Shown here piece after piece: positions 33,470 through 40,021 of a stretch of DNA of 64,000 nt (its first letter is position 1; every line of letters starts with the position of its first letter). The position numbers and the translations under genes were made by a program. The notes below the pieces were generated by a model. That model was not told the origin of the DNA. It saw only the letters and a program-made list of their open reading frames with translations, and searched no databases. Source of the DNA: Patescibacteria group bacterium (GTDB taxonomy: Bacteria > Patescibacteriota > Patescibacteriia > JAXHNJ01); assembly GCA_041649715.1 (NCBI GenBank), contig JBAZMP010000001.1, positions 18,741 to 82,740 of the forward strand, written 5' to 3'.

Positions 33470-33590
33470 GCAACGAGGGTTTTAAAACCCTCGACCTTAC
33501 GGACCCGCCCGCCTTGACTGCCATCAAGGCAGTCAAGGCGGGTGTAAACCGTACGCTCTAACTCCCGAATGTTTTCGGGACGTCGGGACT
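33470..33590 (-). pseudogene. degenerate tRNA-Val(UAC)-like copy carrying a 39-nt perfect-hairpin insertion between anticodon-loop positions 37 and 38
   Basis: Minus strand reads gttagagcg-tacgg-tttaca[cccgcc...gggcggg]t-ccgta-aggtc-gaggg-ttttaaaa-ccctc. D-arm and anticodon arm are tRNA-like. The T-loop is degenerate and there is no acceptor stem. Insert spans 33504-33542. Confidence 0.4.
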
Positions 33591-33839
33591 AGTCGCCCAC
33601 TATTTTATTGATAATCTTTGCGCTTTTCTTACCTTTTTGGGATTTTTCTCTTTTATAAGCCAACCTTCTATCCAGATATTTTTCTAATCGGAGGAGAATA
33701 AACGGTCGTCGATGTTGAGTAGCTTTCGATAAGCCTCAATTATGTTCTCAAAAAACATTTCTTGAAGTTATTTGTTACGCCAATATAATATTAATTATCT
33801 TTTTGGCTTTTTATTATATAGACATGATACATATTACCG

Positions 33840-33913
33840 TGGGCGCGATAGGAGTTGAACCCATGACCTCTTCGGTGTAAACGAAGCGCTCTAACCAACT
33901 GAGCTACGCGCCC
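33840..33913 (-). tRNA. tRNA-Val (anticodon TAC)
   Basis: gggcgcg/tagctcagttggttagagc/cttcg-tttacac-cgaag/ggttcaactcc/cgcgccca. No encoded CCA. Confidence 0.85.
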
Positions 33914-33923
33914 AGAATTATAA

Positions 33924-34006
33924 TGCGGACGGAGGGAGTTGAACCCTCATGCCAAAAATGGCCAGGAGCCTCAGTCCTGCGCGTATACCAATTCCGCCAC
34001 GTCCGC
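33924..34006 (-). tRNA. tRNA-Leu (anticodon GAG), long variable arm
   Basis: gcggacg/tggcggaattggtatacgcgc/cagga-ctgaggc-tcctg/long variable arm gccatttttggc/T-arm gagggttcaactccctc. Confidence 0.8.
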
Positions 34007-34048
34007 ATGAAAATAGATTTTTGTTAAAAAACTCAACACTGGATTTAG

Positions 34049-34130
34049 GGCGTATACCACCCCGAACCACTAAAGGGTTCGGGGTAGCCCTGAACTCTTC
34101 AGTAGTTCAGGGCAATTCCGCCACGTCCGC
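34049..34130 (-). pseudogene. 5' fragment of a tRNA-Leu-like gene with a 55-nt double-hairpin insertion in the D-loop, truncated after the D-arm
   Basis: Minus strand reads gcggacgtggcggaattg[ccctgaac..gttcaggg + ccccgaacc..ggttcgggg]gtatacgcc. The acceptor/D-arm is identical to the adjacent tRNA-Leu. No anticodon or T arm follows. Confidence 0.45.
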
Positions 34131-34136
34131 CTGTTT

Positions 34137-34448
34137 TTACTTGGCTTCGGTTAATTTTCTCGCTTTTGAGGAACGAAGATGATAAAGCTTTGAGCGCCTG
34201 ACTTTATATTTTCTTGTTACTTCTATTTTTTTGATCGTCGGCGAATAAAGGGGGAATATTTTTTCCACGCCGATGCCTTCGGAGATCTTCCGCACTGTGA
34301 AAGTTTTGTTTTCGCCCTTGTTGCGGATAGCGATGACAATGCCTTCAAATATCTGGGTTCTTTCCTTGCCGCCTTCTTTGATTTTTTGGTGGACTTTTAT
34401 CTGATATCCTGGCCGCAGATCCGGCAGTTTTTCTTGGTTTTCGGTCAT
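34137..34448 (-). CDS. rplS: 50S ribosomal protein L19
   Basis: 103 aa. GDxVxVxxKIxEGxKERxQxFEGVVIAxRNxG signature. Confidence 0.9.
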
Positions 34449-34509
34449 AAATTTAATTTGTTTTAAAATAATTAACTTCTTTATAGTATAGAGAAAAACG
34501 AGCGTCCCG

Positions 34510-35433
34510 TCAAGTCTGTCCCTTTAATTCATTTAAAATCGTTGAAAGCTCCGGAGGCAGTTTTTGGCTGAATTCCAACCACTGATTGTTCAGGCTATAA
34601 AAACCCAGTTTGTCGGCGTGCAGAAAAATGCGATTGAGCCGAATTTTTTCCTTTATTTTCTTGTTTTTGTAGAGTTGATCACCGACAATCGGAACCCCCA
34701 GGGCCTTCAAGTGGACGCGAATCTGGTGGGTGCGGCCGGTATATGTTCTTATTTCAAGATAAGTATAATTTGAATAGCGCTTGATGACCCTATAATGGGT
34801 TATCGCTTTTTCACCCGTTTGGTTTTGAGGCCGGGCGACAAATTTGCCTTCTTTGCCGCGGGCAATGGGAAAATCGATCAATCCTTCTTCTTTTATCAAC
34901 CGGCCGGTCACTAAAGCCAGATATTCCTTTTTGACCAGGTGGGACTGGAACAGATTTTTCAGATGGATAAATGATTTTTGGTTTTTTGCCACGACCATCA
35001 GGCCGGAAACGTCTTTATCCAGGCGATGGACGATGCCCGGTCGGCTAGGGTCTTCCCCGACGGAAAGCAAGGAAGGCAAGTGGGCGAGCAGGCGGTTGAC
35101 CAGCGTTTTTTCCCGGCAACTTTCCGCCGGATGAACAGCCAGGCCCGCTTCTTTATTAACGACCAAAAAATCGTCGTCCTCAAAAACGATTTGGAGAGGT
35201 TTTTTTTCGTCAGGCGTAAGGTCGATTTTGGCCGGCTCTTCCGGAGTAATTTCCACTTGATCGCCCCCTTTTAGGAAAAGGTGGACCGGGGGATTTTTTC
35301 CGTTGACCAAGACCATCCCCTTTTTGATCAATTTTTGCAGGTGGGCGCGGGAATATTGCGGATATTGCCGGCATAAGAATTTATCCAGCCTCTCTTTGGC
35401 GGCGTCGTTTTCCACGTTTAGCGTCTGTTTCAT
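34510..35433 (-). CDS. rluD: RluA-family 23S rRNA pseudouridine synthase (RluD-like) with N-terminal S4 domain
   Basis: 307 aa. RLDKFL S4 domain. [16 protein letters not shown] catalytic Asp motif. Confidence 0.85.
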
Positions 35434-38381: not shown

Positions 38382-38385
38382 CTAA

Positions 38386-38418
38386 GCGGGGCCACGATGA
38401 AAATCGTGGCCCTTTTTC
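38386..38418 (+). terminator. intrinsic terminator ggggccacgatgaaaatcgtggccc-T5
   Basis: Perfect stem followed by a T-run. Confidence 0.6.
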
Positions 38419-38640
38419 TTTATCAAAGAATCACCATAATTGGCGAATCAATTTTAACGTCCTATCCTTACCGCCTGGTAAAAAATAGAGCTGGACAGTA
38501 GGTTAAGTCAGAACTTATTTTATGGATGATTCTAGCGATTTTTATGTATCAAATCGGCTTGACAAAACTCCACTTTCATTATAAGGTGTGGAGTCCTTCG
38601 CTAGTTAACTTGGTTCACTTCAAAATAAGGGGGTTGAGTT

Positions 38641-38994
38641 ATGGATTCGCGGAAAATCCAAGTTTATATGGCTAGAGTGTACCCGAAATCAGTTCACACG
38701 GAGAATTATAGAATTCTCTCAATTCCTGGACGGGATGACGTATATTTCGTCTTCCGCAAAGGTTGGGGCAATCGGTTATTCCTTGTTTGGGAATGCAACG
38801 GAAAGATTCATTGCAAGTTGCTCGGCGGCAATTCCAGCTGCCAAGTTATTCCGGAAGAAAAGACGCTGGCCATGAAGGATAATGTGGTTCAGCTCTACTG
38901 TGGCGTAATGAACTTCATTGGCGCGTCGCCTGGAGTGTTACTGAGATACAGACTTGGTAAAGTCGGCTACGCAAATCCGAAAGCCGTGTCATAA
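38641..38994 (+). CDS. hypothetical protein (117 aa)
   Basis: RBS AAGGGGG upstream. Promoter gcTTGACAaaactccactttcatTATAAGg at 38560-38590. Cys-containing, no recognizable domain. Confidence 0.5.
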   Translation: MDSRKIQVYMARVYPKSVHTENYRILSIPGRDDVYFVFRKGWGNRLFLVWECNGKIHCKLLGGNSSCQVIPEEKTLAMKDNVVQLYCGVMNFIGASPGVLLRYRLGKVGYANPKAVS

Positions 38995-39023
38995 TCTAGG
39001 AGGTCCCAGTTTAGTCGAGTAGT

Positions 39024-39056
39024 GGGGTTGCGATCAAAGTCGCAACCCCCTTTTTC
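39024..39056 (+). terminator. intrinsic terminator ggggttgcgatcaaagtcgcaacccc-T5
   Basis: Perfect stem followed by a T-run. Confidence 0.6.
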
Positions 39057-39140
39057 TTTATATTTGAAAGTAGCCTTGACGTTTTAAGGTTCTTGTGTCA
39101 GTCTGATATCAAATTGGAGGAAGAAATTAAAGCACATTAA

Positions 39141-39638
39141 ATGAAAAAACCAAGAGGTGTAATAATGTTAAAAGTGATGACTGTTAGCTGGTTTGTCAGG
39201 CAGGACCAGATCTTGCTGGGCTTGAAGAAGCTCCGTTTAGGGGCCGGGCTTTATAACGGTTTCGGCGGACGAGTGGAGCCAGGCGAGACCATTGAACAAG
39301 CCGCCATTCGGGAGTTTGAGGAAGAAACCAAAGGGATGCAGGTTAAGAGGCAGGAAGAAATCGGCCGCGTGACGGTTCGATTTGAAGAGTCAGATTTGGT
39401 CGTTGAGCTTCATTTCTTTCTGGTGATTGAATGTTGTGGAGAGCCGGCGGAAAACGACGAAATGAAGCCCGAATGGTTTTCTCTCGAGGAGATCCCCTTT
39501 AATAGGATGTGGCCGACTGACCGTATATGTTTACCTTTGGCGATAAAAGGTTTGAAATTTACCGGCCATTTCTTGCTGAACAACCCAGACCAGAGAAAAG
39601 TGATCTCTAAAGAAATCACCGTTGTCGAATTTATTTAA
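39141..39638 (+). CDS. NUDIX hydrolase
   Basis: Nudix box GGRVEPGETIEQAAIREFEEETKG. Probable true start at 39165 (MLKVMT), with an AGAGGTG RBS. Followed by the terminator ccccttaag...cttaagggg-T5 at 39638-39671. Confidence 0.8.
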   Translation: MKKPRGVIMLKVMTVSWFVRQDQILLGLKKLRLGAGLYNGFGGRVEPGETIEQAAIREFEEETKGMQVKRQEEIGRVTVRFEESDLVVELHFFLVIECCGEPAENDEMKPEWFSLEEIPFNRMWPTDRICLPLAIKGLKFTGHFLLNNPDQRKVISKEITVVEFI

Positions 39639-39718
39639 CCCCTTAAGATTAATAGTCATTAAGGGGTTTTTCCTATCTAAAAAACGCCGGATATAATCCG
39701 ACGGTTTTTCAGGCGTGA

Positions 39719-39947
39719 GTGGGCAGTACAAGACTCGAACCTTTCTGACCTTTACGATGTCAATTCTTCGATGCGACTCAGAACAGGCTTCACGCTCTAA
39801 ATTTCTCTGATTGGTGGGCGGCACAAGACTCGAACTTGTGACCTTTACGACCCGCCCGCCTTGACTGCCATCAAGGCAGTCGGGCGGGTGTCAACCCTTC
39901 GGCTTCGCCTCAGGGCAGGCTCTACGCTCCAAGTTTTTAGTCGTGAG
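39719..39947 (-). repeat. two tandem degenerate tRNA-Val(GAC) partial copies; the second carries the same 38-nt hairpin insertion between positions 37 and 38
   Basis: Both copies share tgggc(a/g)g(t/c)acaagactcgaac...gacctttacga with the intact downstream tRNA-Val. The first copy carries a different 28-nt insertion where the 5' anticodon stem should be and lacks a 5' acceptor. The second copy has the cccgcccgccttgactgccatcaaggcagtcgggcggg insert at 39850-39887 and also lacks a 5' acceptor. Confidence 0.45.
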
Positions 39948-40021
39948 TGGGCGGCACAAGACTCGAACTTGTGACCTTTACGATGTCAACGTAACGCTCT
40001 AACCAACTGAGCTAGCCGCCC
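39948..40021 (-). tRNA. tRNA-Val (anticodon GAC)
   Basis: gggcggc/tagctcagttggttagagc/ttacg-ttgacat-cgtaa/acaagttcgagtcttgt/gccgccca. Confidence 0.85.

Follow-up and report, generated by a model that had tools for sequence, protein, structure and literature searches.

Within a 64,000-nt stretch of a Patescibacteria group bacterium genome (contig JBAZMP010000001.1; hereafter the window, with positions counted from its first letter), a hairpin unit of 38–39 nt is found twice, each time inside the anticodon loop of a broken tRNA-Val-like copy. We consider it probable that these hairpins belong, as cargo-less units, to a family of hairpin-bounded cassettes nesting in the tRNA genes of Patescibacteria, and that the broken tRNA copies are displaced pseudogenes. 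The evidence consists of the anatomy of the units, their association with small GIY-YIG nuclease genes, the exact boundaries of the insertions, the complete tRNAs nested within them in relatives (cited below by locus number, L002 and so on), and the decay of the outer tRNA copies.

Hairpin units and broken tRNA genes in the window

The first hairpin unit (33504-33542, 39 nt) lies between A37 and U38 of a disrupted tRNA-Val(UAC)-like gene (copy 1; 33464-33598, minus strand), and the second (39851-39888, 38 nt) lies between A37 and U38 of a displaced tRNA-Val(GAC) remnant (copy 2; 39812-39930, minus strand). A first-pass annotation made from the sequence had reported both the duplication and the placement between positions 37 and 38 of one UAC-type and one GAC-type sequence, with its second interval one nucleotide off. 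In tRNA sense, the junctions read UUUACA-hairpin-UCCGUA in copy 1 (...AGAGCG UACGG UUUACA [39 nt] U CCGUA AGGUC...) and UUGACA-hairpin-UCGUAA in copy 2 (...UUGACA [38 nt] U CGUAA AGGUC...). A 26-nt core, CCGCCTTGACTGCCATCAAGGCAGTC, occurs exactly twice in the window (33509-33534 and 39856-39881), where shuffled sequences predict 0 occurrences. The unit of copy 1 forms a perfect 15-bp stem with a 5-nt loop and has the ends CCCGCC... and ...GGCGGGCGGG in RNA sense, while the unit of copy 2 consists of 7 bp, a 5-nt bulge, and 7–8 bp. The two differ in one arm only (plus strand ...cagtcAAGgcggg vs. ...cagtcGggcggg), so that the change is one-sided rather than compensatory and stem-preserving, as had been proposed.

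Uninterrupted versions of both target sites were recovered. The GAC site, TTGACATCGTAA, is present in the intact tRNA-Val(GAC) gene and in a third tRNA-Val-like copy of the window, and the UAC site, TTTACATCCGTA, in the orthologous intact tRNA-Val(UAC) of relative L005. Filled and empty sites differ by the element alone, and no target-site duplication was found in the window, in L005, or in the set of 24 loci described below. Perfect stems of at least 9 bp occur in the 64 kb at the tRNA remnants, three terminators, a palindrome at 37016-37044, and a site at 60589-60610, and nowhere else. The palindrome is A+T-rich and resembles a bidirectional terminator, and the site at 60589-60610 is likewise A+T-rich; long perfect GC hairpins are confined to the tRNA remnants and the three terminators.

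The three copies are defective in different ways. Copy 1 keeps a full 7-bp acceptor stem (GGGCGAC/GUUGCCC), discriminator A, and an encoded CCA, together with a shortened D arm and an aberrant T loop (UUUUAAAA). Its D arm carries a second insert (33563-33588, minus strand) made of TCCCGACG and the hairpin TCCCGAA-AACA-TTCGGGA (TCCCGAAAACATTCGGGA), whose ends, TCCCGA...TCGGGA, are the termini of the main cassette family. Copy 2 lacks tRNA positions 1–20, including the 5′ acceptor strand. What remains is the 3′ strand of the D stem (GGAGCG), a small hairpin (39895-39915, minus strand; CCCU-GA-GGC-GAA-GCC-GA-AGGG) in place of positions 27–31, the 5′ strand of the anticodon stem, then the anticodon loop with the hairpin unit, the 3′ half, and CCA; the T arm is normal, and the 3′ part is identical to the intact gene at 37/37 nt. 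Of the defects listed in the first-pass annotation, the missing 5′ acceptor stem therefore applies to copy 2 and not to copy 1, and the aberrant T loop to copy 1 and not to copy 2. Copy 3 (39720-39798, minus strand), which that annotation had missed along with the D-arm insert of copy 1, is a 3′ remnant of tRNA-Val(GAC) with no hairpin unit (89% identical over 45 nt) and constitutes an in-genome empty site. It forms a 95-nt tandem unit with copy 2 (repeat spacings 95 and 133), is the older of the two remnants, and holds a variant of the small hairpin (UUCU...AGAA, 39766-39785). L005 and L007 contain hairpins related to it, in both orientations. Remnants homologous to copy 2 are also found behind tRNA-Val(GAC) in L005 and L008.

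None of copies 1–3 is called as a tRNA by ARAGORN with anticodon-loop introns allowed or by Rfam at E values up to 10, and weak Rfam matches on these sequences (HgcE, MIR1446, YrlA) were judged to be chance. At a relaxed threshold, ARAGORN calls a tRNA-Val(tac) in copy 1 only once both inserts are removed. As had been noted, these degenerate copies adjoin intact genes, namely tRNA-Val(UAC) at 33840-33913 (Rfam 72.1 bits), which is the functional replacement copy, and tRNA-Val(GAC) at 39948-40021 (70.1 bits), both, like all tRNA genes of the region, on the minus strand. A further remnant, reported before, is the tRNA-Leu 5′ fragment at 34049-34130 (minus strand). It consists of the D arm and the 5′ strand of the acceptor stem, and a 55-nt double hairpin (34058-34112) separates its G18 from G19. 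The second hairpin repeats the first in reverse complement, including the loop, and an intact tRNA-Leu(GAG), also detected by Rfam, lies at 33924-34006 (minus strand).

The 240-nt spacer between copy 1 and its intact counterpart is wholly occupied by a GIY-YIG nuclease pseudogene (33603-33832, minus strand), which begins 7 nt past the intact tRNA-Val(UAC) and stops 5 nt short of copy 1. It was identified by tblastn as two segments (48% and 38% identity, E 1.9e-4), and comparison of frame translations with the family consensus gives the reading MYHVYIIKSQKDN, an in-frame stop, YYIGVTNNFKK, a frameshift, and ...RRPFILLRLEKYLDRRLAYKREKSQKGKKSAKIINKIV, with one stop and one frameshift in all.

Copy 1 also lies directly upstream of a conserved 89-aa membrane open reading frame (ORF; 33184-33453), in the position that tRNA-Val(UAC) holds in relatives L005, L006, and L081. 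It might therefore have been kept as a tRNA-like processing signal, with cleavage by RNase P or RNase Z setting the mRNA 5′ end of the membrane protein. The perfect acceptor stem, T-arm-like stem, and ACCA end would suit such a role, as would the very stable fold (133 nt, 33598-33466; an extended cloverleaf of −79.3 kcal/mol, z = −9.9), and the ORF follows tRNA-Val(UAC) by ~10–65 nt in the window and in L003, L005, L006, L007, and L081. However, the T loop lacks the conserved UUCRA usual in substrates of both enzymes, and recent disruption accounts equally well for the intact stems. We regard it as very unlikely, although as a secondary use it would be compatible with displacement by a cassette.

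Live cassettes, nested tRNAs, and empty sites in relatives

The tRNA clusters of relatives hold, between their tRNAs, small GIY-YIG ORFs of 79–89 aa (intact in L003, L004, and L007) as well as a 23S_rRNA_IVP ORF. The nuclease family comprises 105 close relatives whose named sources are Patescibacteria lineages, and its proteins are 78–90 aa long and covered over their full length by PF01541. In L007, two identical tandem GIY-YIG units lie behind tRNA-Ile (1035-1274 and 1390-1629), each flanked by the last 12 nt of the tRNA and a 32-nt hairpin region in an arrangement that resembles local amplification. In L005, an ORF of the 23S_rRNA_IVP family (3486-3866) is encoded just 5′ of a tRNA-Leu fragment with a double hairpin.

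Loci orthologous to the window clusters present the cassettes in more complete form. At the tRNA-Val(UAC) position of L006 and L081, a defective outer tRNA-Val-like sequence has a D-arm hairpin (CCCGCCCG...CGGGCGGG) and, in its anticodon loop, arms of the form CCYGCCYGCCAUGGCCARG...UGGCUUUGGCAGGCGGG that surround a complete tRNA-Val(UAC), the only one of the locus. These arms share their termini (CCYGCCCGCC... and ...GGCAGGCGGG followed by U) and their anticodon-loop site with the window hairpin, whose loop is only 5 nt; the window hairpin is therefore best described as the cargo-less form. The same arms enclose a tRNA-Ala in L034. L003 and L004 have an orthologous tRNA-Leu fragment that includes the double hairpin. 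Behind it comes a live GIY-YIG ORF, and the stop codon of this ORF directly adjoins the intact tRNA-Leu. The close relative L089 has no tRNA-Leu 5′ fragment and so represents an empty site, as L005 does for the UAC gene. A double hairpin unit of family 1 (TCCCGA...TCGAGGA directly followed by TCCCGCC...GGCGGGA) precedes the tRNA-Val(GAC) remnant in L008. The tRNA-Ala of L003 is present in three generations: two 5′ fragments end at G35, one stem closes a GIY-YIG ORF, a leader-trailer stem closes the intact tRNA-Ala, and positions 36–49 of the interrupted gene follow. L081 likewise has a tRNA-Ala nested three generations deep (2376-3060), with double hairpins in each and a GIY-YIG ORF in one; the innermost alone is intact.

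The CCA-adding enzyme of the window is 100% identical to a protein that NCBI assigns to a Patescibacteria group bacterium. Gene order around the window clusters is conserved. Relatives with a CCA-adding enzyme 53–73% identical share the order tRNA-Ile(UAU), tRNA-Val(GAC), CCA-adding enzyme, RluD-like protein, L19, tRNA-Leu(GAG), tRNA-Val(UAC), small membrane ORF, and tRNA-Ala(UGC), and because this order is kept, the DNA between the two clusters is conserved housekeeping sequence rather than an island. This bears on the first-pass suggestion of att-site duplications around low-GC islands. Such fragments would have been left behind by islands that used a tyrosine or serine integrase to enter tRNA genes. 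A tRNA 3′ fragment behind an intact gene is typical of an attR remnant, the anticodon loop is reportedly a classic crossover site, and L089 (region 3240-4086) has a serine-recombinase-like ORF right behind tRNA-Leu, a separate mobile element that shares this hot spot. Against this, no integrase or recombinase is encoded among the ORFs of 33184-41141, the GAC fragments both follow directly behind the gene, at spacings of 17 and 13 nt, and frame nothing, and no tRNA fragment is present at the far end (~37.0 kb). The intervening 5.6 kb encodes mostly conserved housekeeping functions (CCA-adding enzyme, RluD-like protein, L19) at a GC content of 45–47%, equal to the window average. Nor would integrase sites produce a full-length copy 1 with internal inserts or a tRNA-Leu 5′ fragment. 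We thus give this origin almost no credence.

The remaining tRNA genes of the region are tRNA-Ala at 33101-33177 (minus strand; its syntenic gene in relatives is Ala(UGC)) and tRNA-Ile(UAU) at 40055-40127 (minus strand), the latter kept in L003 and L007; its presence implies that AUA is decoded without need of a CAU tRNA modified with lysidine. A tandem pair of high-scoring tRNA genes, both with the amber-reading anticodon CUA, U73, and encoded CCA, lies at 54552-54627 and 54650-54724 (plus strand). TAG terminates only 3 of the 43 large ORFs of the window, which together with these tRNAs may indicate UAG suppression or partial recoding. A retro-pseudogene origin of copies 1 and 2, which end in CCA, was dropped because tRNA-Ala, tRNA-Ile, and both tRNA(CUA) genes of the window also encode CCA. 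A 2.7-kb segment (37053-39638, plus strand) contains four opposite-strand ORFs; one encodes a NUDIX hydrolase, and the other three have no above-threshold match in Pfam. Each of the first three ORFs is followed by a perfect GC hairpin and CCCTTTTTCTTTAT. L003, L005, and L008 have no such segment between their tRNA-Val(GAC) and CCA-adding enzyme genes. Farther away, five or six paralogous genes with PEP-utilizers and PPDK_N domains stand in a row at ~21600-33100 (minus strand).

An exact search with the hairpin unit across 185,579 species genomes returned one match, 36 nt identical to copy 2, in a metagenome-assembled genome (MAG; JAZDGG010000009.1, L002) that is unrelated to the window genome and has 56% GC; there were 0 matches in Joint Genome Institute (JGI) metagenomes and 0 in viral contigs. 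The L002 hairpin is placed in the D loop of a tRNA-Ser-like fragment, right after GGAGAGUUGGCCGA, its tRNA-Ser-like 5′ end. A GIY-YIG ORF lies 150 nt downstream, and GGATCC-centred units are also present. Together with related arms in the D, anticodon, and T loops of broken tRNA genes in many Patescibacteria, this match upholds the earlier proposal that the hairpins are mobile or repeat elements landing in tRNA loops. The identical 36 nt in this unrelated genome also led us to reject a local origin of the palindromes by fold-back repair. The L002 stretch 7625-7800 was considered as a known structured RNA (signal recognition particle RNA, RNase P RNA, or transfer-messenger RNA) and gave no Rfam match; it is a nest of units 5′ of the GIY-YIG gene.

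The same data bear on whether the hairpins are instead independent palindromic repeats, comparable to repetitive extragenic palindromes (REP), miniature inverted-repeat transposable elements (MITE), or Rickettsia palindromic elements (RPE), which pile up in dispensable DNA and are unrelated to the GIY-YIG genes. Such an origin would fit the lack of cargo in the window copies, the dissimilarity between the hairpin interior and the tRNA-bearing arms of relatives, and the presence of several unrelated hairpin types, some in both orientations, in the same pseudogenes. It seems unlikely nonetheless, given the confinement of long perfect GC hairpins to tRNA remnants and terminators, the identical tRNA position of both copies, the termini shared with the arms of nested cassettes, and the fact that the sole other genome with the hairpin has it beside a GIY-YIG gene and GGATCC-centred units. 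As for the multi-copy behavior of MITE- or REP-type repeats, the count is two copies in the 64 kb and one in another genome.

To extend the comparison, 80 metagenomic loci were chosen via related 80-aa GIY-YIG genes; the search for loci used a second protein alignment (A2), the first (A1) having proved too diverse. A tRNA gene lies within 300 nt of the GIY-YIG gene in 69 of the 80 loci, always co-oriented, and within 100 nt in 59; after near-identical loci were merged, the corresponding figures are 56 and 48 of 67 clusters. Outer tRNAs were recovered by aligning the adjacent intact tRNA to its flanks with long gaps allowed. This yielded 24 loci with an outer tRNA that is 90% or more complete and is split by the ORF plus the intact tRNA, either between G35 and C36 (tRNA-Ala) or at other fixed positions, and extra cargo-less double hairpins often occupy the sites between G18 and G19 and between C56 and R57. 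The inserts thus fall at D-, anticodon-, and T-loop positions, with one site used across many lineages, and their cargo is a nuclease ORF, a replacement tRNA, or nothing. Their boundaries in the 24 loci are nearly always TCCCGAT...ATCGGGA. Abutting units meet in a TCGNGGATCCNCGA junction; the junction palindrome TCGNGGATCCNCG was counted 69 times across 63 loci, compared with ~0.2 expected as estimated from sequence length. The arms pair over 11–25 bp (median z about −7.5 to −8 relative to shuffles), vary in sequence among loci, and are covered by no Rfam family.

The outer copies range from perfect to badly broken. Inner tRNAs retain 371/371 cloverleaf pairs and outer tRNAs 305/371, with part of the 66 breaks due to gapped mapping. 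Some outer tRNAs have no broken pair and differ from the inner copy by several compensatory changes, and many have 3–9 broken pairs or a hairpin in place of the T arm. Such a gradient is the pattern expected of genes released from selection at different times. Each locus examined by eye has an intact tRNA of matching anticodon beside or within the broken one.

The cassettes are not restricted to tRNA genes. In four loci, a GIY-YIG hairpin cassette of ~318 nt is located within the 5′ end of atpG, between the codons for ITK and AME (L011 2482-2799, L014 21-318, L024 524-839, L083 2480-2801). The interrupted fragment reaches a stop a few codons on, and a complete atpG, with synonymous differences around the insertion site, restarts 17–24 nt downstream. 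L022 and L032 show the same cassette arrangement in another gene.

Insertion in DNA and a proposed homing-like spread

An intron-like origin, also raised in the first-pass annotation, would make the inserts RNA-level intervening sequences (IVS), a new class of bacterial tRNA intron or IVS, with the hairpin or hairpin pair excised from the transcript, for instance through the joint action of a ligase and an endonuclease that is RNase III-like or unknown, and the interrupted tRNAs functional. Several features are compatible with such removal, including the location of the sites in tRNA loops (between 37 and 38 among them), the exact boundaries, conserved termini and lack of target duplication, and the co-variation of the stems. 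After in silico removal of the inserts, ARAGORN calls a same-anticodon tRNA in 16 of the 24 outer copies, some outer tRNAs combine three inserts with several compensatory differences from the inner copy (e.g., L046, L068, L085), and comparable non-intron inserts exist in rRNA genes of the candidate phyla radiation (CPR; PMC11270868). However, the inserts have no bulge-helix-bulge (BHB) motif and no group I or II core, and the hosts are defective in other respects too: the D arm of copy 1 is truncated and its T loop non-canonical, copy 2 is missing its 5′ third, and many outer tRNAs have the broken pairs or converted T arms described above, always with the intact same-anticodon gene at hand in the loci inspected. 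A census of 403 kb of related loci revealed no convincing case of an otherwise intact tRNA gene interrupted by a single hairpin. RNA splicing also cannot explain the atpG cassettes, because a truncated old fragment, beyond rescue by splicing, is followed by a restarted full gene. Removal at the RNA level is therefore quite unlikely, and we conclude that insertion occurs in DNA and that the interrupted copies are genes that have been displaced and have decayed to varying degrees.

For the displacement itself, we propose the following sequence of events. A full unit consists of a stem, with short conserved termini, and a loop that holds either a stand-alone GIY-YIG gene of ~80 aa or a complete replacement tRNA, and units frequently form abutted pairs. 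They would insert precisely at the DNA level, with no target duplication, between G18 and G19, 35 and 36 or 37 and 38, or C56 and R57. Once interrupted, the resident gene would become a pseudogene, and the accompanying intact tRNA would take over. The tRNA-Val-like copies and tRNA-Leu fragment of the window would then be the displaced genes of successive invasions; the nuclease gene beside copy 1 would have decayed, and the hairpins would be either leftovers or units mobilised in trans. Cassette movement is most economically inferred to be homing-like, with the nuclease cutting uninvaded alleles at conserved sites and repair from the invaded allele copying the cassette plus the intact replacement gene; the ORF would later decay while the hairpins remain. 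The stems probably act in the transcript, where they may free the ORF mRNA and the nested tRNA and limit translation.

Several points weigh against this reading. The window contains no intact nuclease gene, and the nuclease activity of the family is predicted. The protein is a catalytic domain of ~80 aa in which no DNA-binding domain was found, a poor fit to a site-specific homing enzyme, and conserved element termini at unrelated targets resemble a transposon or an intron more than a free-standing homing gene. The window hairpin and the L006/L081 arms are alike only in their terminal ~10 nt and differ in their interiors. In L012, the inner and outer tRNAs are identical around the insertion site, which leaves target immunity without explanation. 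Finally, the hairpin copy count is confined to the 64-kb window, and the 80 loci, being chosen via the GIY-YIG gene, do not allow the frequency of hairpins without a nuclease to be measured.

A broader proposal, which we put forward tentatively and with less than even confidence, is that these cassettes may form an undescribed class of minimal selfish elements in Patescibacteria, in which a hairpin unit surrounds an Slx1/UPF0213-like GIY-YIG gene of ~80 aa and always comes with an intact replacement, a natural form of ‘cleave-and-rescue’. Their conserved ends would be TCCCGAT...ATCGNGGA meeting TCCNCGAT...ATCGGGA, or the CCYGCCCG...CGGGCRGG variant of the window, and their targets would be the D, anticodon, and T loops of tRNAs and the ITK-AME codons of atpG, with no target duplication. 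The replacement would be a nested tRNA or a restarted ORF, and the window hairpins would be non-autonomous members. Lacking a DNA-binding domain, the nuclease might find its targets by the structure of DNA or RNA (hairpins, cloverleaf) rather than by sequence. If the cassette reading is right, the tRNA clusters of the CPR would have been shaped by repeated invasion and replacement and not by descent alone, which would account for pseudo-tRNAs, nested tRNAs, and missed tRNA calls, and bear on tRNA annotation and on MAG completeness estimates. It would widen the oddity of insertions in CPR rRNA genes to tRNA genes and one protein gene, and would combine a very small nuclease with a rescue-copy design akin to engineered gene drives. 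An abundant family with conserved ends and an 80-aa enzyme would also be open to biochemical study of a new way of choosing DNA targets.

Comparison with known systems

The closest superficial parallel of the window copies is the protein-spliced tRNA intron of archaea and eukaryotes, whose canonical insertion point between positions 37 and 38 they share. Such introns need an otherwise complete canonical host, which copies 1 and 2 are not, and a BHB (two 3-nt bulges around a 4-bp helix) was not found at the junctions of either hairpin. Among the called genes of the window, which spans 64 kb of the genome, no EndA splicing endonuclease or ligase was seen, although no search was aimed at them. 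Non-canonical tRNA introns of Thermoproteales are described as short, structured, and mobile, with several per gene (Fujishima et al. 2010, cited in PMC10714607). The cassettes resemble archaeal tRNA introns in being short structured inserts at 37/38 and at D- and T-arm positions, with multiple inserts per gene, but differ from these BHB- and EndA-dependent introns of functional tRNAs in lacking a BHB, in their defective hosts, and in the intact copy that always accompanies them. A group I core needs ~200 nt or more, whereas the window inserts are 38–39 nt and have no Rfam intron match. The cassettes are not BHB introns, group I introns, or att remnants.

Integrative elements that target tRNA genes bring tRNA sequence that compensates the disrupted essential gene and leave a displaced fragment, as here. 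They use an integrase and replace only the 3′ part of the gene, in contrast to the cassettes, which have no recombinase, nest a whole tRNA, and comprise units of 40–400 nt. The best sequence matches of the cassette nuclease among solved structures are stand-alone GIY-YIG proteins of the UPF0213/YhbQ type (1zg2, E 5e-8; 1ywl), followed by Slx1 chains. We know of no mobile-element role or tRNA association described for UPF0213, and Slx1 differs in its extra RING domain and its requirement for Slx4.

SegB of phage T4 offers a functional parallel; at ~220 aa, it includes a DNA-binding part, whereas the cassette protein is only the ~80-aa catalytic domain. It is described as a free-standing GIY-YIG homing endonuclease in a tRNA gene cluster that cleaves recipient DNA and so starts the non-reciprocal transfer of its own gene and flanks (PMC2330249), and as promoting segmental amplification of loci (PMC13096335). 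The embedding of a GIY-YIG gene among tRNA genes is common to SegB, the window pseudogene, and the 69 of 80 loci, and the tandem duplicates seen here (copies 2 and 3; L007) are comparable to SegB-promoted amplification. The T4 cluster is not known to have hairpin-bounded units, nested tRNAs, or inserts within tRNA genes.

Related non-intron inserts are already known from CPR rRNA genes; for the tRNA-gene form, a literature search found no description of hairpin-bounded cassettes, nested tRNAs, or such inserts in bacterial tRNA genes. Insertion sequences other than introns are present in 16S and 23S rRNA genes of the CPR, each at the tip or base of a stem-loop (Tsurumaki et al. 2024, J Bacteriol, PMC11270868). 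Many of these are short inserts with no ORF, some code for GIY-YIG or 23S_rRNA_IVP proteins, and they are neither group I nor group II; the paper deals with 16S and 23S rRNA only, and the word tRNA is absent from its text (PMC11270868). The 16S gene of the window matches the full model and has no insert. The cassettes share with the rRNA inserts a Patescibacteria genome, a structural RNA gene as host, a site in a loop or at a stem base, a content that is short and ORF-less or encodes GIY-YIG or IVP proteins, and the lack of group I or II features, and are set apart from them by tRNA hosts, a replacement gene copy, defined termini, paired units, and protein-gene targets.

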